DNA of 64,000 nt from an uncultured bacterium. Its GTDB lineage: Bacteria; Oederibacteriota; PGYV01; CAWJRG01. Numbering within the stretch: position 1 is the first letter of the stretch; every line of letters starts with the position of its first letter. The notes under the pieces were generated by a model. The model saw only the letters and a program-made list of their open reading frames with translations. It was not told where the DNA came from and searched no databases. Below, in pieces: positions 33,717 through 55,467 of the stretch. The position numbers were made by a program, and so were the translations under genes. The DNA lies in NCBI GenBank assembly GCA_963845185.1, contig CAWJRG010000005.1, positions 608,001-672,000 of the forward strand, given 5' to 3'.

Positions 33717-33744
33717 GCAGAGACACGCCATGGCGTGTCTCTGC
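33717..33744. repeat. Perfect 28-bp palindrome, REP-like
   Basis: GCAGAGACACGCCATGGCGTGTCTCTGC immediately after the 33749 stop. Confidence 0.75.
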
Positions 33745-33748
33745 TTAT

Positions 33749-35752
33749 TTATTTTATTACATAGACTTTTAAAAGTTTTTTATCTGCCCCTGCCTCTATA
33801 TACACGAAATACAGCCCTTCTCCCGCAATCTTGCCGTCGCCATTTTTTACATCCCATTGCACCTGGTTCCATCCGTCGGCCGAAGCTGTAAATCCAAGGT
33901 CATTTCTTACTACTTCGCCGGTCAAATTATATACCTTTATTTTTACCTGCACATTTGCCTGGGTTTTCAGGTTTATCTGCAGCTTTTCGCCTTTGTCAGG
34001 GTTTACATAGTTTTTGGAAAGCGTCATGTTTAAGTTGGGCGTAGGAGTATTAGTAACAACCGGTGAAACCACACAAGTGGCCGTAACAACCGGCGTTGCA
34101 GTCGCGGTGTTTCCTGTTCCCTGATTGGTCAGGGTGCTTGTCGCTGTTAAGACAAAAGTTTCCATTGCAATAGCTGTATCCGTAGATGAAGGGACTTCTG
34201 TGCACGTTGAAGTCAGCGTGGGGCTTTCAGTAAGCGTAGGCGTCATTGTCGGCGTATTTGTCCCGGTGTCTATGTATGTAACTATCAATGTTGGAGTGTT
34301 TGTTTGTGTCATGGTAAAAGTATCTGTAATCACCAGCGTGAGCGACGGCGTTGCTGTAAATGAAGGCGTGGGCGTAAATGTAGGCGTGAATGTTGGTGTA
34401 TTTGTCCCGGTATATGTCCTGCTAATTACAAGTGTAGGTGACGGCGTTGCCGTAAATGTTGGCGAAGGCGTCTGCGTCCGTGTGATTGTTGGAGTCGGCG
34501 TTGCATTGGCGATGACAAATGTGAACGCGTATGTATTTGAAGTTCTTGTGTATGTCCCGTTTGTGTCGACTTCAGATGCTGAGGCATTGTCGGTAAATAC
34601 GACCGTACCCACGGAATTAGTTGTGAATACCCATGTAAAATTATAACTGCTGCCTGCCGTAAGTGTTGGAATATACGCAGGCGTTGGTCCTGAATTAATT
34701 GTCACAAGGCTTGAATTTGAGTCTCCCATTCCGCCCGGTACTACATTTGTAGCGTTGACCTGATAACCTGTATTGTTAACTATCAGATTCATAGTTATAA
34801 CCTGGCCCGGAAGCGCCGGGTTTGGATAACCGTCTATTCTTGCTGTTAAAGTCACGCCTTTGACATTCGTGATGCACGGATTGCTCCGCAAAGTAACGCC
34901 TGCAGATTGAATATCCTGTGAAGTAGCAAAAGCCGTATTTGTAATGCTGAACGCCATATTTATGGCTGTAGGGCTGACTAATGTAACTATTGATATGCTG
35001 CCATTTGCATTTGAATTGACTGACCCAATATACCAGTATGCAAATGTGCCTGACGATGTGGTGGATGTAGTAGCATATGGACCAGGGCTTGAGTTTAGGA
35101 ATGTAAGCTCATACGGTATTGTATCCCAGATGTAAACGCTGTTTGCCGGATTTCCCGATGCATTGCTGTAATTAATGGTATATGTAAATGTATCGCCTGC
35201 TTCCATAGGGTTTTCACTGGCTGTCTTTGACATTCCCAAAAGCACTACCGTCACTATTGGGCTGGCTGTAAGCGCCGTGTTTGTTGTGCCTGCAGGCGCT
35301 TCTGAAATACTAAAAGTATATGGGCCTGTGGCAACCGGCACTGTCACACCTTCTGTCCCTCCGCCTGCGCCGTAAACTATGTTCACTGTGTCATACCAGC
35401 TAATATCAAGACCATTGTCTGTGATAGTTATTGTGTTTCCGTTGATACTAATATCATTTGCCGGAACAGTCATTGAATTGCCGCTTGATACTGTATAAAC
35501 CATGACATTCCCAGATGAACCACTGCCATTTGTCGGGGCTGTCCACCCGCTTGGTATCTGGACTGTCAGGTAACCCATGCTTGTCCCGCTGTTTGTCCAA
35601 TTCACGCCGCCTGCATCGGCGTAACTTATTATAAATGTCGCGCCGCTAGAACCCGCGCCGGCGACAGAAGGTGAAATTGTTGCTGTGCCTGTGGCGAAAA
35701 TCGCTGATGTGAATAGTAAAACCGTCGTAAATGCCAGAAAAATTTTTTTCAT
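33749..35752 (-). CDS. Secreted DUF11-like domain protein with Thr-rich stalk and FlgD-Ig/T9SS-like CTD
   Basis: Signal peptide, SKTAS...GDTFTYTINYSN...IWDTIP, CTD KVYNLTGEVVR...WD...GLYFVYI...KVYVIK. ATG overlaps the upstream stop. Confidence 0.85.
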   Translation of the reverse strand: MKKIFLAFTTVLLFTSAIFATGTATISPSVAGAGSSGATFIISYADAGGVNWTNSGTSMGYLTVQIPSGWTAPTNGSGSSGNVMVYTVSSGNSMTVPANDISINGNTITITDNGLDISWYDTVNIVYGAGGGTEGVTVPVATGPYTFSISEAPAGTTNTALTASPIVTVVLLGMSKTASENPMEAGDTFTYTINYSNASGNPANSVYIWDTIPYELTFLNSSPGPYATTSTTSSGTFAYWYIGSVNSNANGSISIVTLVSPTAINMAFSITNTAFATSQDIQSAGVTLRSNPCITNVKGVTLTARIDGYPNPALPGQVITMNLIVNNTGYQVNATNVVPGGMGDSNSSLVTINSGPTPAYIPTLTAGSSYNFTWVFTTNSVGTVVFTDNASASEVDTNGTYTRTSNTYAFTFVIANATPTPTITRTQTPSPTFTATPSPTLVISRTYTGTNTPTFTPTFTPTPSFTATPSLTLVITDTFTMTQTNTPTLIVTYIDTGTNTPTMTPTLTESPTLTSTCTEVPSSTDTAIAMETFVLTATSTLTNQGTGNTATATPVVTATCVVSPVVTNTPTPNLNMTLSKNYVNPDKGEKLQINLKTQANVQVKIKVYNLTGEVVRNDLGFTASADGWNQVQWDVKNGDGKIAGEGLYFVYIEAGADKKLLKVYVIK

Positions 35753-36607
35753 ATTTCTTCATCTCCCTTTTTTAATGATGGTGCTATTATATTGTTTTTT
35801 ATGATTCCCATTATTTCCCTGCTGTAACCCGCCTCAATTATCTGTATCCTCTTCATTATCTTGCCTTTGACAACTTCGTATTTTTCTTTCCCAAGCCCGA
35901 TCTTGACGGCTTTTAACCGCAAAAAAAGCAGCCCGGTCATGCCTTCTTCGATTTCAGTCTTAATCCTGACTGTCGGCCCCAGCATTTTAATATTTCTTAC
36001 CAGCCGCTCCATGTCTATCATGCCGTCTTCCCTCAACTTGCCGTCCGAATCCCAGTTTGTGTTCTTGAAAACGAAATTCCCAAACGCGGTTTTTTCCAGG
36101 GTTTTTAAGAGCATTGCCTTTGCCGCCCTTTCGCCGCATGCTACGGTTAATTCGTCCTGTATTATTTTCCTCAGCTCGTCAAACGCGCCTGCAAGCTCGC
36201 TGATATTTTTTTCGTTTTTATAATCTATCTCCGCCGCGAAAGGTTCCTGTTCCAGTTCCTGTGTAGTTTTTGGCGGTGCAGATTCCTGCTCAAGTTGTTG
36301 TTTTATTTTTTCCGCCCTTTTGATAAGGTCGTCTATTTCATAATCATCCTCAGCGCTTTCCTTTTCTTTCCTGCGTTTTTTCTCCGCTAGCCGTGCCCAT
36401 TTCTTCCAGCTTGGACCTGACCACAATGCTTTTCTTTTCAGGTTTGGTTTCTGCGGGTTTGGCTTCAACATTTTTCTGTGTTGCCGGGTTTGCGCTTTCT
36501 TGTTTTGTTTTATCTTCGTTTTCTTTTTCGCCGGTTACCTGCTCTTCAATGCTGAACATGTCCGCCAGGTCCTGGCTTGTAATTGATAAATCCCGTTTTT
36601 TATCCAC
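35749..36607 (-). CDS. Hypothetical cytoplasmic protein (charged N-half, helical C-domain), one frameshift (~285 aa repaired)
   Basis: ORFs 36350..36607 and 35749..36471 join as RSKLEEMARLAEKKRR when the G3 at 36396-36398 is G2. Confidence 0.7.
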
Positions 36608-36613
36608 GCGTGC

Positions 36614-37003
36614 TCACCTTTTCCTCTGCATTTCTTTGTTTTTTTGTTTGATGAACTCGTCAAGGATGCATCCTTCTATATACCATGCGAGGTAAGGCAC
36701 GAATTTTTCGTTTTCATCCGAGCCCCAGCTTTTTACAGCCTTGATAAGGCCCCTGTTACCTGCCTTTATCAGCTTTACAAAAGATAGCCCTGCTCCCCTG
36801 TACCGGTTGGCTATGCCTATGACCATCCTCAGGTGGGCTTCTATAAGGAACTTTTGAATATCCTCTTTTTCCTCGGCCTGGGAGCCTTCCAGCTTGTTAA
36901 GGAGAATCTCAATTTTGTTAAAAGGCACTTCTTTAATGTGTGATATTACTATGAGATAATCCTTTAAATGGCTTTCGTCTATGTCTATCAATTTTAGCTT
37001 CAT
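36614..37003 (-). CDS. Sigma70-like protein with regions 1.2 and 2 only
   Basis: HLKDYL (1.2), LIEAHLRMVIGIANRY (2.1), GLSFVKLIKAGNRGLIKAV (2.2), KFVPYLAWYI (2.3). Ends at 129 aa. Confidence 0.8.
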   Translation of the reverse strand: MKLKLIDIDESHLKDYLIVISHIKEVPFNKIEILLNKLEGSQAEEKEDIQKFLIEAHLRMVIGIANRYRGAGLSFVKLIKAGNRGLIKAVKSWGSDENEKFVPYLAWYIEGCILDEFIKQKNKEMQRKR

Positions 37004-37188
37004 TGTCCTTTACCTCTCTTTTCCAAATTTTTTATGCTTTCTTCTTCCATCCATTTATTGACCCTGTCAAGGTCAACTAATTTTTCGTTAAAAAAATCCT
37101 GATGCTGTTTTAAAAATTTTCTTAAAGTTGGCAAAGAAATCTGCATGTAATCGGCTGCCTCGCCTTTCTTTACCGCATTTTTAGTCAT
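37000..37188 (-). CDS. Small excisionase/MerR-type HTH protein
   Basis: EAADYMQISLPTLRKF...VDLDRVNKWM, AGGTG RBS. Stop overlaps the next ATG. Confidence 0.7.
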   Translation of the reverse strand: MTKNAVKKGEAADYMQISLPTLRKFLKQHQDFFNEKLVDLDRVNKWMEEESIKNLEKRGKGQ

Positions 37189-37236
37189 TTCAGCACCTGA
37201 GTTCTTGTCATCTTCATATAATACACTGGTTATAGT

Positions 37237-37252
37237 AGCAATTCCTATGCCG
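37237..37252 (-). promoter_or_regulatory. Sigma54 (-24/-12) promoter
   Basis: CGGCATAGGAATTGCT against consensus TGGCAC-N5-TTGC(A/T), with exact GG-N10-GC spacing. Confidence 0.75.
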
Positions 37253-37317
37253 GGTTCAGTAGAAAAACAGTGAATATAATAAGGTAGTTTTTGTGATTGT
37301 TTCCCCTTGCGGAATAA

Positions 37318-37356
37318 TAGTGTAGAATTTTCTACACTAATGTAGGATTTACAACA
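37318..37356. promoter_or_regulatory. Tandem TGT-N10-ACA upstream activator sites for an enhancer-binding protein
   Basis: TGTAGAATTTTCTACA (37321-37336, within TAGTGTAGAA-TT-TTCTACACTA) and TGTAGGATTTACAACA (37341-37356), 20 bp apart. Confidence 0.7.
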
Positions 37357-37406: not shown

Positions 37407-40400
37407 TTACTTTACTATGTAAACCTTAAGCAGTTTTTTATCTGTCCCGGCCTCTATGTACACGAAATACAACCCCTGACCGACAATTTTGCCGTCATCA
37501 TTCTTTATGTCCCATTCAACCTGGTTCCATCCGTCAGCCGTGGTTGTGAAATCCATGTTCCTTCTTATTATTTCACCGGTCAGATTATATACCTTCACTT
37601 TTACGTTTACATTTGCCGCGGCTTTCACGTTTATAAGCAGGGTTTCGCCTTTGTTTGGGTTTAGATAGTTTTTGGAAAGCGTCATGTTTGAATTCGGCTC
37701 AGGAGTATTTGTGGGAATCGGTGAGACCGTATAAGTGGGCGTGATGCTTGGCGTCGGGCTTATCGTGCCTGTTTCTGTTATGGTCAAAGTGTTTGTCTGC
37801 GTGTTTGTCGCTGTAAAAGTGGCAGTTTCCGTGCCGGTAACTGAATATGTGACTGTCGGAGTTTCTGTATCTGTCGCCGTGCCCGTTGAGCTTATAGTGA
37901 AGGTCGGCGTATTTGTGAATGAAGAAGTAACCGTGTTGCTTGGAGTCTCCGTGTTCGTGGATGTGCCTGTACAAGTCAGTGTATTCGTTTCTGTTATTGT
38001 GGAACTTGCTGTGAACGTCGGTGTATTTGTGTATGAAGAGGTGGGTGTACCACTTGCCGTCACTGTGCAAGTGCCTGTCCATGTGGGTGTATTTGTCGGT
38101 GTGTCCGTATTTGTACCTGTCCATGTAGGTGTATTTGTCGGTGAATTCGTGTTTGTCCCCGTCCATGTTGGCGTATTTGTCATTGTATCCGTGTATGTCC
38201 CTGTCCATGTAGGTGTATTTGTTGCAGTATCCGTGTTTGTCCCTGTCCATGTTGGCGTATTTGTTGCAGTGTCCGTGTTTGTACCCGTCCATGTTGGCGT
38301 ATTTGTCGGTGTATTTGTCATTGTATTCGTCTTTGTATCTGTCCAAGTCGGCGTATTCGTCGGCGTCCAAGTCGCTGTATTCGTCGGTGTCCACGTTGGC
38401 GTATTTGTAGTTGTCCATGTCAGCGTATTCGTTGGTGTCCATGTCAGCGTATTCGTTGGTGTCCATGTTGGTGTATTCGTCGGTGTCCATGTCGGTGTGT
38501 TTGTTGATGTTGCTGTATTAGTTGGTGTTAATGTAAATGTAGGCGTAATTGTCCAGGTGAAAACTATCTGCGTGAATGTCTGCGTTATGCTTGGCGTCGG
38601 GCTGCTGGTAGGTGTACTCGAAAATGTCGAAGTCATCGTGCTTGTGCCTGTATTCGTTGGTGTCCATGTTTTCGTATTTGTAGGTGTCCCTGTTGGTGTA
38701 TTAGTCGGCGTCCATGTTGATGTAGCCGTTAATGTATATGTGGACGATAGTGTTAATGTATTAGTGTATGTCAATGTCCACGTTGAAGTATTTGTCGGTG
38801 TCCAGGTTGGTGTGTTTGTAGGTGTTCGCGACGAAGTATTTGTCATTGTACTTGTTGGCGTATTTGTCGGCGTCCATGTCGGAGTAGACGTTAACGTATA
38901 TGTGGACGTTAGTGTTAATGTATAAGTTAATGTCGGTGTCCATGTTGAAGTATTTGTTGGTGTACCTGTCCGTGTATTCGTTAGTGTCCATGTCGGAGTA
39001 GACGTTAATGTATATGTGGACGTTAGTGTCAATGTATAAGTTAATGTCGGTGTCCATGTCGAAGTTTTTGTCGGTGTTCCTGTCGGTATATTAGTTGGTG
39101 TCCCTGTTTGCGTTGCCGACGGTGTCCCAGTCTGTGTATTCGTCGGCGTCATCGTTGGTGTTGATGTATATGTCAGTGTCTGCGTATATGTACTGGTTGG
39201 TGTTGATGTAGTTGTGGCAAAAGCGCATGAGCCCGGGCAATATCCTACATATATTTCATATTCCCCCGAATTGCTGCTTGCGGACGGGAACGGGTCCGGA
39301 ATATCGTTAACCGAGCTGTAGTTGGTGTTTTTAAATGCTATATTCTCTCCTGAGTTTGCGCTCGCGAACTGCACGCCGTTATCTCCGAGATACGCGAGCC
39401 AGTATGTACCTGCAGGCAGGCATGTCACAGGAATATTATAAGTGTTCCAACCCGGACCGCATGTTTGCTTGCCTGTACTGGCAAGAAGCGCTCCAGGCAC
39501 TCCGGCATTGTCTGCGTAAATTCCCAGTATCACTCCGGATGACCCGCTTCCCAGGTTGTTAATTGACATTGTGTATCCCCTGCCGTCCTGCGCCAAAGTA
39601 AACTGCGTTGCCATCAGGGTATTTGATGAATTTCCGCCTGACGGCCCTATGGAGTCATCTCCAAAATGTGCGTAAGTACATGGCGGTGTCGGAGTCGGCA
39701 GTCCCGACGGACAGTAAAGCACATATACTGAATACTCTCCGGTATTGGTTGTAGGGCTGTTCGGGAATGTTGCAGGCATTGACCCTGTGGAGCCGAAGTT
39801 CATGTTAACATAAGCCAGATCACTCCCGCTGTTATTTGTCGCTATCTGAGACCCGCTGTCTGCAAGGTATGCCAGCCAGTAAGTGCCCTGCGGCAGGTTT
39901 GTCATTGATATGGGATAAATGCCCCAGCTGTTTGCGCCTATCGCCTGTTTTGCCGTGGCTATTATAAGATTTCCCGGGGTTCCGAGGTTATCACTATAAA
40001 TACCTATCATTATATTACTTGCAGTGCCCTTGTTATACGCCGCGACCTGTATTCCTGTACCTCCGTCAGACATCAGAAATTTTGTTGCCATGAGTGTATT
40101 GGCAGAGTTTCCGCCTGATGAGCCTATTGCATTTAACCCGAGGTAACTGTTGCATACCGTCGAAGTAAATGTCGGAGTTCCTGTCACTGTAAGCGTGATA
40201 ATACTAGTTAACGTTGCTGTTGGCGTAATTGTTATAGTATTTGAAATGGTCGCTGACGGGACCGTGCCCGCACATGTGAAAATAAGCGCGGTAGGCCCCC
40301 TTCCGCACGCCCATGCCAGTGTTGAATATGCCGATATACCAAGCAGCTCGTTTGTCGTGCCGCTTGCCTGCTGGTTCCAGCTGGTACCGCCGTTATTTGT

Positions 40401-43400
40401 GGCGACTATTGTTCCGTTTATGCCCGAACAAAAACCATTAAGTGAATCCGCAAATGACATTGACTCCAGCGACTGGCCGCTAAAAGTTGCAATTATACTC
40501 CAAGCGCTGCCGTTCCACTGCGCTATCTGGCCGCCGAGCCCGCAAACCAGGGCATTATTCAAAGAAAATGCGTGTATCCCGTAAATATCGCTCACCATTG
40601 GGTTTGCAATGTTATTCCAAATCGCGCCGCCGTTATTCGTGGATAGTATCGTGTGCCCCATGCCAACTGCCCAACCGTTATTTATGTCAAGCATATAAAT
40701 TCTATTGAGCCCGTTTGTAGTGTTGCTTGTCTGAGGAGCCCAGCTCGCGCCGCCGTTTGTAGTATTAATGATGGTCCCGTTGCCGCCGACTGCCCAGCCG
40801 TTGTTTGGGTCTGTAAAATAAATTCCCATTATATTGACTGAATTTGACACGCCGGTTGTCTGTGTATTCCATGTCACTCCGCCATTGGTTGTATAGTAAA
40901 TATTGCCGTTTGAACACGCTACCCAGCCCGTCATATTATTGATAAAATATATTGTAAACGCGCATGACCCCAGCATAATTTGTTGCGTCCAGGAAAGTCC
41001 GGCGTTTGTTGTGTGGTAAATATCGCCGTAAGTGTCGCCCATCCAGCCTTCGTTTGCGCTGACAAAGAAAACAGAAAACAAATCCACGGAAGAAGGCGGG
41101 CTCAGCGCCTGCCACGCCAGCGTACAGGCCGTCATTGTCTGTGTTGGCGTTATTGTGTATGATATTGTCGCTGATACAACTGGCGATATGGTAGATGTTG
41201 TTGTTATTGTCGGGGATTTTGTGCAAGTATATGTCGGTGATGGCGTAAATGTCTGCGTGTTTGTGCCTGTGTTTGACGGCGTGTTTGTCGGCGTCGGAAG
41301 CTGAGGAGAGTACCATAAGTCATTAAGCCTTGTTGTACCGTCGCTTGCTATACCTCCATCAGCCCACATCTGGTTGTTGAATACAATTACACCCGGCCAT
41401 CCGCGGGTACTGAAATTTGCATTGCCTACTTTTGTCCAGTTTGCTCCGTCAGGAGACGACCACACGTCATTGTAGTATACGTTGCTCGGGTTCCAGTCAT
41501 ACCCTGCTATTACCCATACTTTACCTGCATATGTGATGGCCCTGTGCCCCTCTCTTTTTGTATAAGACGTGCCTGTAGCCTGTGTCCATGTCACTCCGTC
41601 AGTTGACCACCAATTGTCACTATATGTATTTGACGCATCCTCGCCGCCAAATACCCACATTTTTGCGCCGCCGCCCGGGTCAAAAACGCAGCCGGCCAGT
41701 CCATCACGCTTGGTCCAATTTGCCGCCGCGGTTGCAGTCACCCAAGTTATTCCGTCAGTCGACCAGAATACGTCATTAAAATATTTATTTCCCGGTGTGT
41801 TATACCCACCCATTATCCACATTTTTCCGTTGTACACCATACACAATGAGCCCTCTCTTGCTGCAAAATTTGCTGCGCCTGTCGCCTTTGCCCAGTTTGC
41901 GCCGTCAGAGGAATACCACACATCGTTCATGTCTTGTGATGCAGTATTGTAACCGGCTATAATCCACATGAAACCGTTGTAATCCAGACACCCGCTATAT
42001 CCTCTGCCGGAAAAAGCTGCAGCGGTGGTCGCGGTCAACCAGTTCGCGCCGTCGTTTGAATAGTGTACGTCGTTTCCATAGCTGCTTTGTAGACCTCCGC
42101 CTATCACCCACAGCTGGCTGTTGTGTACAATGAACCCAAAATCATACCTTGCGGCAAATATGCCTGTAGGCGTCGCCTGGTACCATGTAACTCCTGCGCC
42201 GGACAGCGCTGTCGGTGTAGACTGCGGTGTATTTGTCTGAGTGACGCTATAGGTTGGCGTTATACTGGGTGTAATTGTCTGCGTTCCGGTTGTGGTTACG
42301 GTAAAAGTTGGCGAATTCGTGGCTGTACGTGAAGGTGTAAATGTTTTTGTATTTGTCCCTGTATTTGTCGGCGTATTAGTCGGAGTGGGCAGCTGCGGCG
42401 AGTACCATACGTCGTTATTGTAAGTGTTATTTTTTATTCCCCCTGCTATCCATAACTGGTTATTGTAATTATATCCGCCAGGATAACAGCGTGTTGTGAA
42501 TGATGCGTTGCCAACGTTTGTCCAGTTTGCTCCGTCAGAAGACGACCATACGTCGTTTAATGTTGATGCCCCATTGGGTGAGCCTGCTATAAGCCAGACT
42601 TTGCCGCCGTACACAAGGGCCTTGGCACCGTACCTTGTGGTAAAAGCAGTTCCTGTGGCTTGGGTCGATGTCAGCCCGTCAGTCGACCACCATGAGTTGT
42701 TTATTGTTGAGTTGCTGCTTATTGCACCTCCAAATATCCACATTTTCGGCCCGCTGCCAGGGTCAAAAACGCAGCTGCTCATGGAGTCCCGCGCAGTAAA
42801 AGCAGCGGTACCTGTTACCTGCGTCCACGTTATGCCGTCTGTAGAATTCCACACATCATTCATGTCAACTGTATTTGAGAGCCCGCCTATTATCCACATA
42901 CTGTTATTAAACGCAATCATCGCAGGGTCCTCGCGCACTGAAAACTGCGCGGTTCCTGTCACCTGCGTCCATGTAATACCGTCGGAAGAACTCCATACAT
43001 CGTTCATCTCAGCGCCATTGTTGCCGGCTGCCACCCACATTTTATTGTTAAATACGCAATAGCCCATGCTTCTCCTGGCAGAAAATCCGGCAGCCACGGT
43101 AGCCTGCGTCCAATTGATGCCGTCGGAAGAATAATATACATCATTAACTAGCTGGGTCTTGGTGATACCGCCTATAACCCACATAAAATTGTTATAAGTT
43201 ACGTTTGCAAAATCATATCTGCCGGAAAAAAGAGCTCCCGAGGTTGCCTGAAACCAGTTCACGCCAGCTCCAGGCAGCGCAGTCGGCTGCGGTGTATTTG
43301 TCTGCGTGACCGTAAATGTCGGCGTTGCCGATGGAGCGGAAAACAATATTGAAGGAATAAATATACTTGCGAGGATTAATAACGAAATTTTTTTGAGGAA

Positions 43401-43469
43401 TGTTCCCCTGAAGTATTGAATGCTCTTGGAAAAAAATACGCATTTTGTTTTAATCTTTGATTTTCTCAA
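37407..43469 (-). CDS. Giant secreted protein: two Kelch-like propellers, YCF48/BNR-like propeller, two beta-sandwich modules, Thr-rich stalk, FlgD-Ig/T9SS-like CTD
   Basis: Uninterrupted 2020-aa ORF with MWVIGG/DVWSSSDG blades, GWAVGxxGxIxxTxNGGxxW repeats and a CTD ending KVYIVK. Start codon uncertain. Confidence 0.9.
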   Translation of the reverse strand: MRKSKIKTKCVFFSKSIQYFRGTFLKKISLLILASIFIPSILFSAPSATPTFTVTQTNTPQPTALPGAGVNWFQATSGALFSGRYDFANVTYNNFMWVIGGITKTQLVNDVYYSSDGINWTQATVAAGFSARRSMGYCVFNNKMWVAAGNNGAEMNDVWSSSDGITWTQVTGTAQFSVREDPAMIAFNNSMWIIGGLSNTVDMNDVWNSTDGITWTQVTGTAAFTARDSMSSCVFDPGSGPKMWIFGGAISSNSTINNSWWSTDGLTSTQATGTAFTTRYGAKALVYGGKVWLIAGSPNGASTLNDVWSSSDGANWTNVGNASFTTRCYPGGYNYNNQLWIAGGIKNNTYNNDVWYSPQLPTPTNTPTNTGTNTKTFTPSRTATNSPTFTVTTTGTQTITPSITPTYSVTQTNTPQSTPTALSGAGVTWYQATPTGIFAARYDFGFIVHNSQLWVIGGGLQSSYGNDVHYSNDGANWLTATTAAAFSGRGYSGCLDYNGFMWIIAGYNTASQDMNDVWYSSDGANWAKATGAANFAAREGSLCMVYNGKMWIMGGYNTPGNKYFNDVFWSTDGITWVTATAAANWTKRDGLAGCVFDPGGGAKMWVFGGEDASNTYSDNWWSTDGVTWTQATGTSYTKREGHRAITYAGKVWVIAGYDWNPSNVYYNDVWSSPDGANWTKVGNANFSTRGWPGVIVFNNQMWADGGIASDGTTRLNDLWYSPQLPTPTNTPSNTGTNTQTFTPSPTYTCTKSPTITTTSTISPVVSATISYTITPTQTMTACTLAWQALSPPSSVDLFSVFFVSANEGWMGDTYGDIYHTTNAGLSWTQQIMLGSCAFTIYFINNMTGWVACSNGNIYYTTNGGVTWNTQTTGVSNSVNIMGIYFTDPNNGWAVGGNGTIINTTNGGASWAPQTSNTTNGLNRIYMLDINNGWAVGMGHTILSTNNGGAIWNNIANPMVSDIYGIHAFSLNNALVCGLGGQIAQWNGSAWSIIATFSGQSLESMSFADSLNGFCSGINGTIVATNNGGTSWNQQASGTTNELLGISAYSTLAWACGRGPTALIFTCAGTVPSATISNTITITPTATLTSIITLTVTGTPTFTSTVCNSYLGLNAIGSSGGNSANTLMATKFLMSDGGTGIQVAAYNKGTASNIMIGIYSDNLGTPGNLIIATAKQAIGANSWGIYPISMTNLPQGTYWLAYLADSGSQIATNNSGSDLAYVNMNFGSTGSMPATFPNSPTTNTGEYSVYVLYCPSGLPTPTPPCTYAHFGDDSIGPSGGNSSNTLMATQFTLAQDGRGYTMSINNLGSGSSGVILGIYADNAGVPGALLASTGKQTCGPGWNTYNIPVTCLPAGTYWLAYLGDNGVQFASANSGENIAFKNTNYSSVNDIPDPFPSASSNSGEYEIYVGYCPGSCAFATTTSTPTSTYTQTLTYTSTPTMTPTNTQTGTPSATQTGTPTNIPTGTPTKTSTWTPTLTYTLTLTSTYTLTSTPTWTLTNTRTGTPTNTSTWTPTLTYTLTLTSTYTLTSTPTWTPTNTPTSTMTNTSSRTPTNTPTWTPTNTSTWTLTYTNTLTLSSTYTLTATSTWTPTNTPTGTPTNTKTWTPTNTGTSTMTSTFSSTPTSSPTPSITQTFTQIVFTWTITPTFTLTPTNTATSTNTPTWTPTNTPTWTPTNTLTWTPTNTLTWTTTNTPTWTPTNTATWTPTNTPTWTDTKTNTMTNTPTNTPTWTGTNTDTATNTPTWTGTNTDTATNTPTWTGTYTDTMTNTPTWTGTNTNSPTNTPTWTGTNTDTPTNTPTWTGTCTVTASGTPTSSYTNTPTFTASSTITETNTLTCTGTSTNTETPSNTVTSSFTNTPTFTISSTGTATDTETPTVTYSVTGTETATFTATNTQTNTLTITETGTISPTPSITPTYTVSPIPTNTPEPNSNMTLSKNYLNPNKGETLLINVKAAANVNVKVKVYNLTGEIIRRNMDFTTTADGWNQVEWDIKNDDGKIVGQGLYFVYIEAGTDKKLLKVYIVK
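38077..38508. repeat. Intragenic tandem repeats: 6 x 42 bp and 7 x 24 bp
   Basis: GTCCA anchor recurs at 38077, 38119, 38161, 38203, 38245, 38287 and at 38341 to 38485 in 24-bp steps. Confidence 0.85.
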
Positions 43470-43537
43470 ACCCTTTTCCCACCTTTTTTGCGTTAATAAA
43501 ACGCGTACTTTATAATGTAAGTGAAGATACCTATTAA

Positions 43538-43566
43538 ATTATACACTCTACCTAAATAATAGTCAA
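43538..43566 (-). promoter_or_regulatory. Sigma70-type promoter
   Basis: TTGACT-N17-TATAAT upstream of 43469. Confidence 0.6.
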
Positions 43567-43758
43567 GATAAATTACAAAATACATAACAATATTAATTCT
43601 TTATTTATAAGGGTAAAATAGAATTTGAAGGATGAAATTTTGGTGGATTCAGAGTCAATTAAACTGTTTTAGGGTTCGTCTTTGGCTAAATACGATTGAA
43701 AGTGTCAGTGGAGTGCTTTGCAATCTATAGAGAGCTGTAATATTTTTTTTAGGATAAT

Positions 43759-43792
43759 AAAAAAGGACGGATATAAAAATCCGCCCTTTTTT
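43759..43792 (-). terminator. Intrinsic terminator
   Basis: GGGCGGAT-N6-ATCCGTCC followed by T6, just after the 43809 stop. Confidence 0.75.
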
Positions 43793-43808
43793 ATTATTAT
43801 TTAATCTT

Positions 43809-46800
43809 TTACTTTATTACAGCGATTTTTTTCCTCACTATCCTGTCATTTGCCTGGATTACAAGAAAATATATTCCATTTGACACTTCTATTCCCTCAT
43901 CATTCTGTAGATCCCATTTGACATAATTAACGCCGCTGTAAACTAATGCTGAATTTAAACTCCTGCTCCACACCATACGGTCGTTTATATCATATATCCT
44001 GATACTTACATCCACAGGCTCATATAAGGAGAATCTTATGGTTGTCGGGCCGCTGCATGGATTTGGAAAATTATAGGTGTTGCTTTCGGACATCTCTTCA
44101 GGCAATGGCGTCTCCTGCTTTGAAATTTCAGCCATAGTCATGCTGCCTCCGGATGTGCCTGTTGGAGTCGTGGTAGGCGTGTATTTTGGAGTATTTGTAC
44201 GTGTAGGTGTTGGTGTCCATGTCCTTGTCCAATTTAGCGTCGGAGTATTTGTACGAGTTATTGGTGTTGCTGTTCTTGTCCAGTTCGGTGTGGGCGTATT
44301 TGTTAGCGTTATTATCGATGTCCTTGTCCTTGTCAGTGTTACGGTCGCCGAGCGCGTTATTCCCGGTGTTGCCGTCCTTGTCCGGTTAGGCGTTGGCGTA
44401 TTTGTTAGTGTTATCACAGTCGTCCTTGTCCTTGTTAATGTAACAGTCGCCGAGCGTGTTATTCCTGGTGTTGCCGTCCTTGTCCAGTCAGGTGTAGGTG
44501 TATTTGTCTTCGTTATTGTTATCGTCCATGACGGTGTCGGTGTAATGGTCTGCGTAGTTGTGCGCGATATTGTTGGTGTGCTTGTCGGCGTCCATGTTGG
44601 TGATGTAGTTGACGTATTTGTCGGAGATGGCGTTGGCGATGTAGTCGGTGTACCAGTAGGAGATGCTGTCGGTGTATTTGTTAATGTCCATGTAGATGTA
44701 TTTGTAATTGATATTGTATTTGTTGGAGTCGCTGTCAGTGTCCAGGTAGGCGTACCCGTCATTGTTACCGAATATGTGTATGTATATGTCGGCGATGGCG
44801 ATGATGTACTTGTGCAAGCGCAGGTATTTGTAGGCGTTGATGTCAATGTCCATGTTGGTGATGGAGTCGGCGTGCCCGTAGGAGATGCTGTCGGTGTATT
44901 TGTTAATGTCCATGTAGAAGTATTTGTAATCGATATCGTATAGGTTTGAGTCGCTGTCGGCGTCCATGTAGATGTTATAGTTGGTGTATTTGTTAGTGTA
45001 CTCGTCGAAGTGTCGGTCACACTCCAGGTTGATGTTGCTGTGTATGTGGAAGTTGTGGTTAACGTTGCTGTATACGTCAACGTTAATGTGCTTGTGAATG
45101 TTGGAGAATTCGTCACTGTATCTGTCGGTGTTGATGTCAACGTCCATGTCAATGTCACTGTATACGTCGGCGTTTCGCTGTTTGTCTCTGTATCAGTTAG
45201 TGTATTGGTCGTTGTAACTGTATATGTCGGCGTCTCTGAGTTTGTCTCCGTATAAGTTGGCGTATATGTCGGTGTCTCTGTGTATGTAGGCGTTTCACTT
45301 GTTGTCAGTGTTCCTGTCGGTGTCGCTGTATATGTCGGTGTTATCGTAGAAGTCATAGTGCAAGTCGGAAGCATTGAACTGCTTATTGTAAACATAAAAG
45401 CATCGTATCCACCTTGCCCAAACGAATTTGTCTGGCCAGTCACGACAAAATTATTGTTGGCTGTCTTTATAATAGAATACGCTATTTCGTTGTTATTTCC
45501 TCCTGTTTTTTCACTCCATATTATCCCAGTGCTGTTAAGATAAACTACATAAATATCCTGCTGTTTCGAGTCAAACAGGTTCTCATATCCGGTAACCATG
45601 TATGTTCCCGGAGTATTTTCCACAATAGAATAACCCACGCTTTCGCCAGTCCCGCTGATTACCTGTTGCCATTGCTCATTGCCCTGGCTGTCGATTTTCA
45701 CCACAAACATATTTTTATATCCGGTACTTGTCAATTGTGTATATCCAGTTATTATATAACCGTTATCTGATGTTGCGGCTATCGAATATCCTTCATCGTT
45801 ATATATACCGCCGTATTCTTTTGTCCATTGTATGCTGCCTGTAGAATTTAATTTTACAACATATATATCGTTGCCTCCGCTGCCGAATGAATTGGTAGTG
45901 CCTGCAACTGCGAATCCTCCGTCACTTGATTGTGCAATAGAATATCCAATGTCATCGCCTGTACCGCCGCTGGTCCTGTCCCAAACAAAATTGCCGTTGC
46001 TGTCCACTTTCATTACATACAGGTCCTTGCCTCCTGCGCCATAGGATGTCGTGTATCCAGCCATGACAATTCCGTTATCTGAAGTTTTTAATGCACTCAT
46101 GGCGACATCATCCCCTGCGCCTCCATAAGTCTTTGTCCACACACAATCTCCCAAGCTGTCTGTTTTTATTAAATATATATCCTTGCCTCCTGCGCCAAAT
46201 GAACTTGTATAACCAGAGACCAGTAACCCGTTATCGCTCGTTTTAACAACCGCATGTCCTTCATCGTTTCCTGTTCCGCCAAAATTCTTCTGCCATTGAA
46301 CCGTATTATCATCCCCGATTTTCGCGAGATACACATCTTCTCCGCCATTAGTATTGCTTGTGGTTCCGCCCGTAATAACGAAGCTGCCGGTTTCTGTAAT
46401 AGAATATGCGCTTTCATCTCCGCTCCCGCCGCTTGTGACCATGCCCGAAGTATCTGTGGCCGTGAATGTAGGCGTTACGGTTGATGTAAGAGTATTTGTC
46501 GGCGTCCATGTAGACGATGTAGTCGGGGTATTTGTTGCTGTCCACGTCGGTGTTGCTGTAAATGTCGGCGTTACAGTAAGCGTACCAGACGGCGTGATTG
46601 TCTGTGTTAATTTAACCGCACAATTGTCATTATATCTCAATACAGTTCCACTATAATTGCCAAACAGGATCCTGCTCTGGCTATCTATCATCGCAGTCAT
46701 TCCGCCATCATTATTCTCAGCAATAATAAAGCCATCATTAAAAGTGGTGTCTACGGTCCCGTCATTATTATATCTCCACAAAACGCTGTGATTGCTTCCA

Positions 46801-49800
46801 TTCGTCACATAGCTCTGTCCACCCACAAGTATTTTTCCCGAATTATCAATAATTAAATTATTTGCTGAATCATATGCATTTGCCCCTGCCGTATTGTCAC
46901 GGATTACATATCCTGTTCCATTTAAACTATAATCCCGGCTTCCATCTGAATTATATCTCCAAACAGCCATTTCTTCCTGGCCTGAAGAATTATTACTCGA
47001 TCCGGCAACAACAATTTTTCCATTTTGGTCAATCGTAATACTATCGCCTTCGTCATCATTTCCACCAGCAGTCCCGGCGCAAACAATATATCCGGTTCCG
47101 CCAAAACTTGTATCAGCGCTGCCATTGGAATTATATCTCCATATCATCATATTATTGCCACCACTACTATTCGTAATATTGCCGGTTGTCAGCATTCTCT
47201 GATTCCCATCAATGACAATACTCCTGCCTTGAGCAATGTAATTCCCTATATGCTGCCCCACATATCCAGTACCGTTAAAACTCGTATCTAGAGTTCCATC
47301 CGTATTAAGCCTCCATATCGTCATGTTATACGCATTGTCATTTCCGGTTATTAATATCTTCCCGCTGCTATCAAAAATCATTCCCATACCAAAGCAGTCT
47401 GTAGTGGGCTTTGTGTAAACTTCATATCCAGTGCCATTGAATGTTGTATCAAGGGTACCGTCATTATTATACCTCCAGACAGCCATCCCCCAGGGACTTC
47501 CTAAAATATTAAATCCTGCAACCCATATTTTTCCGTTCGAGTCGACAGCAACGCTCCATCCACTGGCAAAAATTGCCCCAGGTACATAATACGTTGCATA
47601 ACCAGTACCGTTAAAACCCGTATCTATCGAACCATCCGTATTAAATCTCCATAATGCCATATAATAATTTGATCCTTGTACAACCATTTCTCCGGTTAGC
47701 AGTATTTTTCCTGATTTGTCTACAGTCATACCCCGGGGTTCTGAAGTATTCGGGATAACAAAAACCGTTTGCCCATTTACTCCAAACGTAGTATCAAGGG
47801 CTATGCATTGCGTTTGTGTGTTAGTGTATGTCGGCGTTGCAGTCTGCGTTATAGTCGAAGTCGGAATTGTCGGCGTCAATGTTGGCGTTACGGTTGATGT
47901 AAGAGTATTTATCGGTGTTGCTGTACTGGATACTGTGCTTGTCGCAGTGAGTGAAGTGGTTGGAGTTGCCTTGTATGTCGGTGTATTTTGTGCATTGACA
48001 ATTTCACAATTGTCTATATATCTCCAAAGTGCCATATCATTGGAAGTGGTTCCCGTAATTAATATTTTCCCATTTCTATCTGTTGTTATGCCATAACCTG
48101 TGTTGTCACCATTCCATATATACCCCATTCCAGAATTAAAATTCAGATCAAGCGTCCCGTTTTGATTAATTCTCCACAAAGCCATCGCATTGATACTGCA
48201 TCCTAAAATACTTCCTGTAACATATATTTTTCCATTATTATCCAATAAAATGCCATACCCTCTTTCCTGACAGGTTTCTCCGGTCTTTTCGAATACAAAG
48301 TATCCTATCCCATTAAAATTTGTATCCAGTGTTCCATCTGGATTATACCGCCAAACAACCATATCGTAATTTGGAGGATTGAATGGCGGACTCGAATTAC
48401 TATCGCTACACCCAGTGATATAAATTTTTCCATTATTGTCGATTATTACTGCCTCGCCAAAATCGTGCCTGAAACCGCCAGCCGCGCCATCATGAGTTAC
48501 CCAACCTTGTCCGTTAAAAGTTGTATCCAGCGAACCGTCGGGGTTATACCGCCAGATTGCCATATCATAATTTGTCGAAATTTTACAACTATAACCGGAA
48601 ACAACTATCTTGTTGTTATTATCTATAGTTACGTTAGTGCCTATAGAACTTGCAGCACCACTATATGTTACCCAACCTTGTCCGTTAAAAGTTGTATCTA
48701 GCGAACCATCGGGGTTATACCGCCATACTGCCATAGTAATATTACTATTGTTTGCATGCTGTCCAGCTATTACTATTTTGTTATTTGAGTCTATTGCAAT
48801 TCCCGCTCCATTATCATACCCATACCCGCTGGTAGGTGCGAAAGTTGCTGAACCGGTTCCGTTAAAACTAATATCCGGTGTTCCATCGGGATTATATCTT
48901 GCCACAATCATGTTCGAATTTGTTGTAACCCCTGTAGTTAATATCTTTCCATTTCCGTCAATTTTAATTGCGTTAAACCTCACAACTCCCCCATTCGAAA
49001 CATACCCTCCGTTAAAAGTATTATCTATCATCCCATTATCAAGAATATCTCATTAATACTCCGGTTGAATTCCCGTACTGATCGTATCCACCATAACCGG
49101 CAATGATTATTTTCCCTTGATTGTCAACAGCCAATGCGTAACTAGCATCCGGATAATTGTTATTTCCGCTGAAGTTATATGTTGCAAGGCCACATCCATT
49201 GAAAGACGTATCAAGTGATATGCAAGCCGTGACTGATACAACAGGGGTAGATGTGAACGAAGCCATAAAAATCAAAGTAGGTGTTCCTGTATTCGTACAT
49301 GTCTGCGATGTTGTACCAGTCAGTATACTAGTTGGCGTCCACGTAGGCGTCGGCGTTTCGCTTGTTGTCAATGTATCTGTTGAACTTTCCGTTGGTGTCA
49401 ATGTTAGGGTGTCTGTTGGTGAATCAGTTGCAGTAGTTGTCGGCGAGTCGGTTGGCGTGTCTGTAGATGTTTCAGTTGCTGACGGTGAGTCGGTCGGCGT
49501 ATCTGTAGGCGTTCCGGTTAATGTCGGTGTGCCTGTGAACGTTTGCGTTACTGATATCACAACTGCCATTGTAGAAGTTACCGTCGGCGAGAGCAACGTC
49601 TCCGGTGGCGAAAACCAAACGTCGTTATATTCTGTATCATCGTCGAAACCGCCTATTACCCACATGCTGTTGTTATAAACAAGGCTTGTATGGCCCATCC
49701 TAGCTGGAAATTCCGCGGATGCGGTTTCCTGCTGCCATACAGCACCGTCAATCGACGACCATACATCATTAAAAAATTCGTTATAAGTATATCCTGCTAT

Positions 49801-52800
49801 CATCCACATCTTACCGTCAAACGTTAAAAGTGTATTCGCAAATCTTGTATTATAATGCGGGTTACAACTACCGGCACATGTCCAGTGTAACCCGTCTGTC
49901 GACCACCCGGCAAATTTAGTACCAACATATCCATTCATAGTTCCATTTGCGACCCACATTTCATCATTAAATACAGTACATGAAACATCCATTATAGGGC
50001 CAGTCGGCGCTGATGAATCAATTTCTATCCAATTTGTTCCGTCAAAGGACCAAACATCTTCCAAATCACCTGTCGGTCCATGTCCGCATATGACCCATAT
50101 TTTGTTGTCATAAACAAGGCTCGCTTGTGAATCCCTTGCTGAAAAATTGTCAGGCGGCGATTGTTGCTGCGTCCAGTTATAACCGTCCGGAGACGACCAT
50201 ATTTCTTTATTGTCGTTGTGGGAAGCATCTTCACCTCCTATGACCCAAATTTTTCCATTAAATACTACAGCAGTATGATATGCTCTGGCGGAAAATGCGG
50301 CAGATGCCGTTTCCTGCGTCCAGTTCATACCATCAACAGATGAATAAGTGTCGTTTAGTACCTCTGTACCGTCAAATCCTCCAATTACCCACATCGCCCC
50401 GTTAAACACCACGCCCGCATGCCCTTCCCTGCCTGAAAAAGCAGCGCTATTCGTAGCTTCCTGCCAATGTATGCCTGTCCCTGCAGGTAGTGACGTGCAT
50501 GTAATCGTAGGTGTTACTGTAATTGTAATTGTCGGTGTTTCGGTTGTTGTCATTGAGTAAGTAAACGTTCCGGTTATTGTCGGTGAATCTGTCAGTGTTG
50601 CCGTATATGTCGGCGTAGGGGTAAACGCTCCAATAACAATATCGTTCAGGTACCAGCCCCTGTAATCATTGTCCACATCATCAACAGTATCAAATACAAA
50701 TTCGAAATTTACCGTATCGCCCGCATACGCCGACATGTCAATTATTATATTTTCCCAGGCATCCTCAGTACCGCCCAGTTCCATTATCTGTGACCAGCTA
50801 TTGCCATTTATAGATATATAAAGTTTTCTGGTGTCATAATCAAAAGGCGGCTGTACACCCGACCCGTTTTCAGTCTCTGCCCAGCTCCAGAACGAAAGCT
50901 GCTGCCCCGGGCTGATATAGAAAGACTGAGTAATGAGTGCTCCGCTGTTTGCCATATCTCCGGTATCATAATTTAGCGTGGCGTCCTGGCCGTAATACCA
51001 CGTATTCGGGTAAATAGCTGTATACCCTGACGGTTCCTGACTATCCGGAACCTGATGCCATAATCCCGTAGCTGTTTCAGTATTCGGCGTAATTGTGGAT
51101 GTTAAGGTACATGTGGACGTTATGGTACATGTAGGCGTTACGGTATATGTAGGCGTTATAGTATATGGCGGTGTCATTGTCGCCGTCGGCATTATCCCGA
51201 CAACAATATCATCCAGATACCAGCCTTGATAATCATTGTCTAAACCATCAACCGTATCGAATACGAATTTGAAGTTTACTGTATCGCCTGCATACGCCGA
51301 CAGGTCCATATTTATGTTTTCCCATGCATCCTCAATCCCGCCCAGTTCCATTATCTGTGTCCAGGTGTTGCCGTTGTCTGTTGATATATAAAGTTTCCTG
51401 GTGTCATAATCAAAAGGTGGCTGTACTCCTGATCCGTTTTCCGTCTGTGCCCAGCTCCAGAATGAAAGCTGCTGCCCCGGCTGGATATAAAAAGCCTGAG
51501 TAACGAGCGCTCCGCTGTTTGCCGTATCGCCGGTATCATAATTAAGCGTTGCGTCCTGGCCGTAATACCACGCGTCCGGATCGGTAGCTGTATATCCTGA
51601 CGGTGCCTGGTTGTCCGGAACCTGGTGCCATAACCCCGTCGCTGTTGCAGTATTCGGTGTGGTTGTGGGTGTTGCGGTGATTGAACTTGTTACGGTGCGT
51701 GTTGGTGTTATGGTATATGTAGTTGTAATCGTCGATGTATTTGTCAAAGTTGAAGTATTCGTCATTGTCGCCGATATGGTCGATACTACCATACTATATA
51801 TATGCAAAGCCCCGTCGTTGCCGTTAACCACCATAAAGTTGTCAACCGATATAGGCCCGGTTATATTTGCCCCTATATTTATTGTGCCGGCAAGCGACTT
51901 TGTTGTCCTGTCAAATATGTTTATACCGCCGTTTGCTATGGGGACTATTACGCTTGAACCTGTCAATATTGCGCCGCCGTACGAAACCTGCGGTATGCTC
52001 ACAGGCGATGCTATCGGCATCAACTGTGCGTTTATCAGGTTTATTTTGCCTGTTGTAGCGCCAAAATCCTGCGACGTAATTCTCATCACATTGGCAGTGG
52101 AATTATACGCGGGAGGCGCGAAAACCTCGCCCGGCAGCGTAGTGCTTCCGGTTTGTGTGCCGTTTGTATTATTGTTCCATATGTTCCCGCTGAGCCCCGA
52201 TACCACAAAAGAAGACGTGCCGGTAAAAACCGGGTTTGTGGATATTGGCGATGAGAGCAGTTGTGAATTTACCGTGGTGCAGGCTGTATTGATTATGTAC
52301 TCATATCCTGTTGACGACACAAACACTATATTGTCGCCGAGCGCGGGCGAGTTTGAAATATAGTCGTTTAAGCTCATGCTTACGATGTTGCTTATTGCGC
52401 CGCTTGAGTTTAGTTGTATTGAAAAAACGCTGCCGTTATTATCGGAAAAAACGACCGAGTTAACCGAACCATTTGTTATGTATAAAGGCGAGGCAGACAC
52501 TCCCCCAGAAGCCTGCTGTTTCCACGCAAGGGATAAATCCGCCGCGTTTAAGGCGTACATGTATCCGTCAAGCGAGCCGAAGTATACAAAATTGTTGTAT
52601 ATTAAGGGCGTGCAGACTATTGGCCCGCCCGTCTGATAAATATTGGAAACGCTTGCGCCGTTGCTTCCAATGGTTACTTCGACTATCTTTCCATCGCCTG
52701 TTCCGGCATATATTGTGTTGCCTGACTTTATTGGCTGGGACAGGTTCACGCCCGGCGTGGCTATGGGAACAACGGCAAAAGGCAAAGGCACACTTAGCGC

Positions 52801-52926
52801 CGACGCGCCTGTATAATAGCCGCTCCTCCCCTGGTCTCCCCTGTAGGTTGTCCAGTCAGCTCTGAGCGCCGCAGGCAGAAGCAATATCCCGCATGCCAAA
52901 ACCTTTAATAATGTCGCTTTTTTCAT
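43809..52926 (-). CDS. Giant secreted protein: PQQ-like propeller, two MAM/immune-inhibitor-A-like domains, Kelch, two delta-60 repeat propellers, GGxGxD propeller, Thr-rich stalk, T9SS-like CTD, one frameshift (~3038 aa repaired)
   Basis: ORFs 49039..52926 and 43809..49031 join as MRYLDNGMIDNTF on removing one base at 49044-49045. RYNPDGSLDTTFNG repeats. CTD YNFPNP...WD...NGIYFL...KKIAVIK. Confidence 0.85.
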
Positions 52927-52959
52927 TTTATGCTCTTTTTAATATATTGAATTCTTTAT

Positions 52960-53457: not shown

Positions 53458-53469
53458 TATTTTCTCCTT

Positions 53470-55406: not shown

Positions 55407-55467
55407 TTGATATTCTTCCTTACACTCAAACAATAAATGTAATTCTTTTTCATTACAATTCAATTAA

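Follow-up and report, generated by a model that had tools for sequence, protein, structure and literature searches.

What a free-standing piece of a sigma factor does in an operon that ends in a surface protein, and how that operon is switched on, are the questions raised by a four-gene cassette in the genome of an uncultured bacterium of the phylum Oederibacteriota. The cassette lies in a stretch of 64,000 nt, called the window here (assembly GCA_963845185.1, contig CAWJRG010000005.1, positions 608,001 to 672,000 of the forward strand). Comparison with related genomes gives good support to a predicted operon under a sigma-54 promoter that encodes a DNA-binding protein, a stand-alone sigma piece, a helical protein and a surface protein. 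The joint reading that we consider likely is that this operon is activated by a bacterial enhancer-binding protein (bEBP) and that its sigma region 2-like (sigma2) protein is an accessory factor directed at RNA polymerase rather than a sigma factor that reads promoters.

All genes of the cassette are on the minus strand. The gene of a helix-turn-helix (HTH) protein and that of the sigma2 protein overlap by ATGA, a gap of 6 nt precedes the third gene (c3), and c3 and the surface-protein gene (the cargo) again overlap by ATGA. A first-pass annotation of the window had seen four tightly coupled genes here; the overlaps and the gap stand as described, but the third gene consists of two open reading frames (ORFs) in different frames. 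Upstream of the HTH gene is an intergenic gap of 218 nt. It contains a GG-N10-GC element, CGGCATAGGAATTGCT, which matches the sigma-54 consensus at 10 of 11 positions, is oriented toward the HTH gene and lies 48 nt before its start codon. Two TGT-N10-ACA sites, TGTTGTAAATCCTACA and TGTAGAAAATTCTACA, start 20 nt apart, 104 and 84 nt upstream of CGGCATAGGAATTGCT; these elements, with their coordinates and spacings, are where the first-pass annotation had placed them. No sigma-70-like promoter was called in the gap on the operon strand, and Rfam gave no match over positions 33600-37500.

Conservation of the promoter and its upstream sites

Taken alone, a match of this quality to the sigma-54 consensus is no more frequent than chance predicts, both in the window and in the genome. 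With one mismatch allowed, the window holds 6 matches where 5.78 are expected, and 93 of the 98 sites that score 10/11 genome-wide lie in coding DNA; enrichment in intergenic DNA is confined to the perfect matches (6/7). Just 11 intergenic sites in the genome score at least 10/11, CGGCATAGGAATTGCT among them. The TGT dyad occurs 3 times in the window where 0.72 are expected, each time at the cassette locus, and the only tandem intergenic pair of TGTAG-N6-CTACA-like sites in the genome (66 matches) is that of the cassette. The decisive support for the predicted promoter is comparative conservation, not the consensus match.

Of 23 genomes from the same order, 16 contain homologs of the sigma2 protein in short frames (107-149 aa, 34-52% identity); the remaining seven (61-99% complete) yielded only full-length sigma factors, and their incompleteness leaves absence undemonstrated. 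The promoter comparison covered the 15 loci first fetched, 14 of them with enough upstream DNA, plus two closer relatives from metagenomes, L045 and L046 (89% and 78% protein identity). A GG-N10-GC element matching at 8-11 of 11 positions occupies the same place in all 14 testable loci, upstream of the sigma2 gene by 227-265 nt, or by 53-80 nt in loci without an intervening HTH gene, and L045 and L046 retain it as well. The first-pass annotation had named conservation of the -24/-12 element in relatives as a check on its proposal, and the element is kept in 16/16 orthologous promoters (GGCAY-N5-(T/A)TGCW), in which GG, A5, Y6, T13, GC and W16 are invariant and positions 7-11 vary. Invariant bases at -24 and -12 around a free spacer are the pattern expected of a sigma-54 promoter rather than of a conserved RNA or a coding remnant.

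The upstream sites are conserved in a looser form. Strict TGT-N10/11-ACA gives 7 sites in 5 of the 14 loci, where shuffled sequences average 0.54 sites and reach 4 at most. The relaxed motif TGT-N10/11-[AT]CA, which is post hoc in that it was picked after inspection of the data, gives 14 sites in 10 loci, a number of loci reached in 0 of 2000 shuffles. Relaxed sites occupy two fixed offsets, one of -94 to -104 and one of -75 to -84, lie exactly 20 nt apart in 4 loci, and recur at the distal offset (-94 to -97) in 7 further relatives. L045 retains the distal site of the cassette and L046 part of it; both have unchanged TGTAGA/TCTACA ends in the proximal dyad, whose centre differs in L046. Between the sites and the -24 element lies a box of the type TTTCnCA-N3-5-GAAAC (TTCCGCAAGGGGAAAC in the window), which was found by eye in 14/14 loci and is also kept in L045 and L046. 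It was considered as a general feature of sigma-54 promoters, but was not seen at the other 12 sigma-54 candidates of the genome; it is also unlikely to be the operator of the HTH protein, as it stays in loci that have no HTH gene. In L045, ~140 nt are inserted (~600-745) after the sigma-54 promoter and ahead of the ribosome-binding site of the HTH gene; the insert resembles sequence upstream of G000:C5:272588-274258 (G000 being the genome of the window).

Genes of the loci of 16 relatives and of the region itself were clustered in order to compare gene order. Upstream of the promoter in the relatives lie, in this order, a uvrC-like gene, a HAMP/HisKA/HATPase kinase, a REC/Sigma54_activat/HTH_8 regulator and a gene for a coiled-coil protein (c1; 218-261 aa, hydrophobic N-terminus, no family match), which is present in 12 of 16. 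Downstream follow the HTH gene in some loci, the sigma2 gene, c3 in some loci, and genes of Thr/Pro-rich proteins with a C-terminal domain (CTD). Thus of the conserved trio and upstream sites that the first-pass annotation had suggested looking for in related genomes, the gene order and the tandem site are conserved across the order, whereas the HTH gene and c3 are absent from some loci. An NtrC-type bEBP lies within ~5 kb upstream in 11/16 relatives, accompanied by the histidine kinase (HK) in 10 of them; there is none within 8 kb in 2/16, and the contig or the fetched stretch ends in 3/16.

The ortholog of this bEBP in the genome of the window (G000:C5:672363-673682) lies beyond the window on the same strand, 27-28 kb upstream, where it adjoins c1. 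It shares 61-66% identity with the relatives' copies, compared with 39-50% for five paralogs; the six bEBP genes of the genome have long open frames and strong Sigma54_activat matches. The kinase ortholog is unlinked (C5:764632-766023). The recognition helix of the bEBP is nearly invariant across loci, and a shared class of site is therefore expected. Among NCBIfam models, PrsR (TIGR02915) is third best for the linked bEBP (409.1 bits, cut-off 502.6), after NtrC and AtoC. The first-pass annotation had favored an activator of NifA type. That assignment does not hold, since the linked bEBP is a REC-AAA-HTH_8 response regulator which scores 367 bits on the nifA model TIGR01817 (cut-off 528.85) and has Response_reg, not GAF, at its N-terminus. 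Its broader proposal of a bEBP/sigma-54 switch is well supported by the conserved -24/-12 element, the upstream tandem sites, the gene order and the bEBP as a conserved neighbor. From these comparisons we infer that the linked bEBP is the activator that binds the tandem sites, and that the promoter fires.

Directly before the promoter in L045 and L046 there is a GH36-like gene (read by eye), so the ~24-kb block that separates the GH36 gene from the promoter in the window (Table 1) can be read as a recent insertion. This block contains surface-protein genes of 2020, 1740 and 1295 aa and RHS genes (1509 and 559 aa). Elsewhere in the genome, sigma-54 candidates with related upstream dyads occur at C1:141103-141118, C9:432786-432801, C9:130474-130489 and C9:789784-789799. 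The dyad is exactly TGTGCC-N4-GGCACA at C9:432786 and a variant at the other three (e.g. TGTTCC-N4-GGCACA, TGTGCC-N4-GGCGCA), and one of these candidates precedes a 1724-aa CTD protein. The TGTGCC-type sites look like the regulon of another bEBP.

Table 1. Positions of the cassette, its promoter elements and neighboring features in the window
Feature	Coordinates	Strand	Basis or remark
Distal putative activator site TGTTGTAAATCCTACA (TGT-N10-ACA)	37341..37356	-	motif match
Proximal putative activator site TGTAGAAAATTCTACA, dyad TGTAGAA-AA-TTCTACA	37321..37336	-	arms of 7 nt judged by eye
Conserved box TTCCGCAAGGGGAAAC of the TTTCnCA-N3-5-GAAAC type, downstream of the activator sites and upstream of -24	37299..37314	-	by-eye alignment
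Sigma-54 -24/-12 element CGGCATAGGAATTGCT (GGCAT-N5-TTGCT)	37237..37252	-	predicted transcription start site near 37226
62-aa winged-helix HTH protein (excisionase/MerR/gpNu1-like)	37000..37188	-	HTH_17 and excise match weakly
129-aa stand-alone sigma region 1.2-2 protein	36614..37003	-	PF04542
c3 N-terminal piece, 85 aa: conserved D-L-x-x-(I/M)-F-(G/S) peptide and part of charged linker	36350..36607	-	GTG start; frameshift at end
c3 remainder, 240 aa: linker helix and ~160-aa all-helical C-terminal domain	35749..36471	-	
667-aa secreted surface protein: ~400-aa N-terminal part with DUF11 repeat, Thr/Pro linker, T9SS-type-A-like CTD	33749..35752	-	
28-nt palindrome just 3' of cargo gene	33717..33744	.	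no T run after it on operon strand
c1 coiled-coil protein, 242 aa, partial	63583..64000	-	continues past window end
~24 kb of surface-protein and RHS genes between GH36 gene (61434..63566) and promoter	37407..61099	-	

The stand-alone sigma region 2 protein and its partners

The only family match of the 129-aa protein is Sigma70_r2 (PF04542; E 1e-9, residues 53-121, 38.5 bits against a cut-off of 24), and it passes no cut-off among the NCBIfam sigma equivalogs. A profile of 21 family members searched against the PDB found sigma2 of the primary sigma factor SigA (E 1e-20), with a match that begins late in region 1.2 and extends through region 2.4, and the protein ends 8-15 residues after region 2.4. 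Region 4 (r4, r4_2) has no match at the cassette locus and is present in all 13 other region-2 genes of the genome; the description of the gene as half a sigma factor, given in the first-pass annotation, is accurate. At E<=1e-30 the profile finds 21 clusters among 1.8 billion representatives, mostly as end-to-end matches of 109-134 aa, and below that threshold the list passes into ordinary sigma factors. By this profile search the family is small and discrete. A direct search for homologous proteins gave five relatives besides the protein itself.

Several observations bear on the wider distribution of such proteins. A language-model search returned other clusters of 113-138-aa proteins with region 2 only, in other phyla; these are leads that may include fragments. 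Some database proteins (P0015, P0021, P0023 and P0024) match the sigma2 profile in 2-3 separate stretches and may have tandem sigma2 domains. Two adjacent short sigma2-like frames are found in a genome of another order (G024:C181:1070-1759).

Residues of sigma regions 2.3 and 2.4 read and melt the -10 element, and the D/Q/E triad of region 2.2 contacts the clamp helices of the polymerase. Over SigA region 2.3/2.4 the family consensus is eeeedfseyiawkiEgaiidal. F, Y and the first (wedge) W of SigA are kept, and its basic loop, second W and R/Q/N/R positions have given way to acidic residues, Gly or Ile. Because the sigma2 fold and the wedge Trp are kept and the residues for reading the -10 element and contacting the clamp are replaced, the sigma2 protein may modulate the polymerase; that it acts on RNA polymerase instead of reading promoters is a weak inference from these residues.

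The HTH gene is present in 12/17 loci. The AlphaFold2 model of its product (pLDDT 86) has the order strand-helix-helix-hairpin-helix (beta-H-H-beta-H), and its best fold matches are the small-terminase domains of TerS/gpNu1, RacA and the Xis excisionases (TM 0.5-0.7, weak E-values). No region 4 is among the fold matches listed, and alignment to the 13 region-4 domains of the genome reached an hhalign probability of 43.9%, over the 20-column HTH core only. Judged from the model, the protein is a predicted winged helix of the excisionase/MerR kind and probably not a region 4.

In c3, which is found in 13/17 loci, a conserved N-terminal peptide, [ED]D[LI]xE[IM]F[GS], is followed by a variable charged linker. 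Its C-terminal domain is modeled as all-helical, with block pLDDT 86-96 over residues 131-290. No Pfam or NCBIfam family, no PDB sequence match and no Foldseek match at E<=0.001 was found; the best VIA-align Z of 6.9 is in the range common for helical models, and atlas scores reached only 0.76-0.79. Three tandem genes at C10:594485-598674 (441, 613 and 293 aa) are paralogs that share the C-terminal helical domain. They have long Glu/Lys-rich stretches before it and no family match, and the 293-aa protein has a c3-like N-terminal peptide. Clusters or pairs of c3-like paralogs occur in many genomes across the phylum.

The cargo is what ties the operon to the surface. Its ~400-aa N-terminal part shares 28-34% identity with the leading cargo of 9 out of 15 loci in relatives, among them two genomes in which the operon consists of the sigma2 protein and cargo. 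The sole constant tie of the operon to surface proteins, on this comparison, is the cargo predicted to be co-transcribed with it. The first-pass annotation had inferred that the regulator trio reprograms surface-protein expression, a step for which these results give no support. The cargo CTD, which resembles that of the type IX secretion system (T9SS), is just under the cut-offs of TIGR04183 (22.3 and 22.5 bits, cut-off 23), PF18962 (22.8, cut-off 27) and FlgD_ig. At least 61 CTD-bearing proteins are encoded in the genome. Inspection by eye of the upstream regions of the 38 CTD genes with an upstream gap of at least 60 nt revealed promoters of sigma-70 or extracytoplasmic function (ECF) type and no new shared motif.

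It appears unlikely to us that the HTH and sigma2 proteins, perhaps together with c3, make up an alternative sigma factor in two parts that switches on many surface-protein genes elsewhere, which would be the strong form of the first-pass proposal. The idea draws on the tight coupling of the two small genes through an ATGA overlap, on the existence of split sigma factors with such a division of labor, on the retained wedge Trp and region 2.3 F..Y..W aromatic pattern, and on the CTD-bearing proteins as potential targets. However, the HTH topology is that of excisionases and MerR, with neither the hhalign result nor the listed folds pointing to region 4; acidic or small residues replace the basic loop and region 2.4 residues of SigA; 5/17 loci gave no HTH gene and 4/17 no c3; and the CTD genes appear to have promoters of other types. 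An orphan region-4 protein (C8:36211-36633) was rejected as a partner, having a zinc ribbon, an integrase-like gene and IS-like genes beside it (by eye) and no linkage to the cassette. This 140-aa protein is a zinc ribbon fused to sigma region 4, and an apparent repeat array (by eye) lies nearby.

We give about the same low chance to the sigma2-like protein being a decoy or competitor that occupies a surface for sigma2, either on the beta-prime clamp helices or on a regulator that binds sigma, and so would shift the polymerase away from sigma-70 or, in the manner of RfaH, aid elongation through the long, repetitive surface-protein genes downstream. The site on the clamp helices is one that RfaH and NusG have in common. 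A sigma2 fold that stands alone and whose DNA-reading residues have degenerated would suit this role, as would the long Thr/Pro-rich surface-protein genes (c0 cluster) that always follow the sigma2 gene in the operon (16/16 relatives' loci) and the one genus, with two intact loci, whose operon contains the sigma2 protein and cargo only. Against it, the polar residues of region 2.2 expected for binding to the clamp helices, by the roles generally ascribed to them, are not conserved.

Proposed mechanism and competing readings

In the reading that we favor, a HAMP histidine kinase would phosphorylate the NtrC-type response regulator (REC-AAA+-HTH_8), which would bind the two sites 20 nt apart, ~75-104 nt upstream of -24, and activate sigma-54 RNA polymerase at 37252..37237. 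The transcript would yield the Xis/MerR-like HTH protein, the sigma region 1.2-2 domain, c3 and the DUF11/CTD surface protein. The sigma2 protein would then modulate the polymerase by competing with or substituting for sigma2 contacts when the surface operon is induced, and the HTH protein could possibly tether it to DNA. Only tentatively do we go further and suggest that the sigma2 protein founds a new class of bacterial transcription factor, which would be induced through sigma-54 and would dock on RNA polymerase or on a partner that binds sigma without reading -10 elements and, with the HTH protein and c3, would form a polymerase-targeting module coupling an environmental two-component signal to the production of giant surface proteins.

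Several observations, besides the chance-level frequency of the consensus match, weigh against the favored reading. Four of the 14 loci have no TGT-N10/11-[AT]CA site. There is no terminator between the 2020-aa gene and the cassette, so that read-through is possible from the sigma-70-type promoter of that gene (TTGACT-17-TATAAT at 43566..43538), a neighboring cargo gene for which the first-pass annotation had correctly reported a promoter of this type. The bEBP gene is not adjacent to the cassette in this genome, and the HK ortholog is ~91 kb further off. In the sigma2 family the D..QE positions of region 2.2 are mostly K..KA, and with the D/Q/E triad replaced by K/K/A, binding of the sigma2 protein to core polymerase is uncertain. 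In rpoN the core-binding domain is split between two frames in an A-rich stretch (C6:108206-108219), and c3 comprises two overlapping ORFs in different frames where relatives have a single ORF of 215-305 aa. If both frameshifts are real, the module is decaying in this genome.

We regard it as improbable, more so than the two roles for the sigma2 protein weighed above, that the cassette is inert or decaying here, with real frameshifts and an operon that is silent or read through from the upstream sigma-70 promoter. The frameshifts themselves, the splitting of c3 in two other relatives and the inserted genes that separate the bEBP from the promoter are in line with decay. The genome has a single rpoN locus, with overlapping frames at G000:C6:107926-108475 (locus L001 about 1195-1260) and with the CBD and DBD domains over their cut-offs. 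We favor an assembly indel over a dead rpoN, because six bEBP genes persist in long open frames and at least 11 strong intergenic -24/-12 sites remain, with 6/7 perfect matches intergenic. Thus, where the first-pass annotation had proposed confirming rpoN and bEBP genes, six bEBPs and one rpoN locus are present, but the latter is frameshifted. The c3 of the window differs from that of L044, a relative with 91% identity, by one extra base in an A/G-rich run near 36366, and here too we think an assembly indel more likely than a real frameshift. Both frameshifts lie in A-rich stretches, a frequent place of assembly errors, and the promoter and its sites are intact and near-identical in close relatives, which speaks against decay. 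A programmed frameshift in c3 was rejected, as c3 is split over frames in 3 of 13 loci and the breaks are at different places in the three genomes.

Finally, it is very improbable that the -24/-12 match arose by chance and that an ordinary sigma-70 promoter drives the operon, as the chance frequency of the consensus and a TATAAC/TATAAT-like stretch after -12 might suggest, because GG-N10-GC with GGCAY/TGCW flanks and a varying spacer recurs in 16/16 orthologous promoters, the TATAAC/TATAAT-like stretch has no acceptable -35 at 17-18 nt by eye and no sigma-70 promoter was called, and a bEBP gene is a conserved neighbor.

Other features of the region and genome concern the surface proteins more widely. 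An ECF-type motif, G(G/A)AAC-N17-GTCT(A/T)A, precedes 6 of the 38 CTD genes inspected (examples are G000:C10:222668-226372, C10:226689-229739, C6:112128-113924 and C9:635163-637889), and its GTCTAA-like part alone precedes 3 more; an ECF sigma factor probably governs part of the surface proteome. A SprA-like frame of 2148 aa and ~40 PorV-like matches were found genome-wide, all below cut-offs. Within the window, a 598-aa frame at 15548-17344 is PorV-like, and several PorV-like genes adjoin CTD-protein genes. These matches suggest a divergent T9SS-like export system with many shuttle paralogs. The 22-nt core of the palindrome behind the cargo gene, GAGACACGCCATGGCGTGTCTC, has 41 copies in the genome at up to 3 mismatches, and several pairs of variants have a spacing of exactly 1618 nt, which would fit copies at either end of a small mobile element.

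Comparison with known systems

In well-studied pathogens, surface remodeling and secretion are under the control of sigma-54 cascades whose last step is a second sigma factor. The same cascade logic would operate here in an uncultured lineage associated with peat, and the operon is conserved across one order of this phylum, which is likewise uncultured. If it is true that the sigma2 piece acts on RNA polymerase, this would be a new way to modulate the enzyme and a handle on the regulation of surface proteins that are very large and rich in threonine. Together, the promoter, the sites upstream of it and the linked activator make up a compact set that is testable in a heterologous host.

The upstream activator sequence of NifA is TGT-N10-ACA, and the cassette shares this geometry upstream of a -24/-12 promoter; NifA has a GAF domain, whereas the linked activator of the cassette has a receiver domain. 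Closer in logic are the Rrp2-RpoN-RpoS pathway of Borrelia burgdorferi and the HrpR/HrpS-RpoN-HrpL pathway of Pseudomonas syringae, in which a bEBP is reported to act on a sigma-54 promoter to express a sigma-70-family gene, and surface lipoproteins or a secretion system are governed in turn. Those cascades make a complete sigma factor (RpoS, or the ECF sigma HrpL); the cassette makes only a degenerate region 1.2-2 domain, predicted to be co-transcribed with an Xis-like HTH protein, c3 and the surface protein itself.

In the PrsK/PrsR system (with PrsT), an HK and an NtrC-like regulator are tied to PEP-CTERM genes that have an upstream activator motif and a -24/-12 element (PMC1569441). It is alike in linking an HK and a sigma-54-dependent regulator to surface proteins that carry a sorting signal. 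In the cassette that signal is a T9SS-type-A-like CTD, not PEP-CTERM, the tandem site occurs at one promoter only in the genome, and sigma2-like, HTH and c3 genes are present that PrsKR does not have.

In split sigma systems, namely SigO-RsoA of B. subtilis, Sig7-Sig8 of Tn916, gp33/gp34 of SPO1 and gp55/gp33 of T4, a small protein with only region-2-like function is likewise encoded beside a small DNA-binding or co-activator protein. The partners there are a region 4 or proteins that bind the flap or clamp, whereas the partner in the cassette is an excisionase/MerR winged helix that is dispensable in some lineages, and the region-2 protein of the cassette is closest to the primary sigma SigA without having its DNA-reading residues.

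The first-pass annotation knew of no described system with this layout. The general cascade proves to be known, from Rrp2-RpoN-RpoS, HrpRS-HrpL and PrsKR; for the second tier its statement stands, insofar as listings and abstracts gave no account of a stand-alone sigma2 domain under sigma-54 control that has these partners, nor did those reached via sigma-54 and type IX secretion. The wiring is familiar, and the new part is the second tier, in which a free-standing sigma2 protein is combined with two small proteins.

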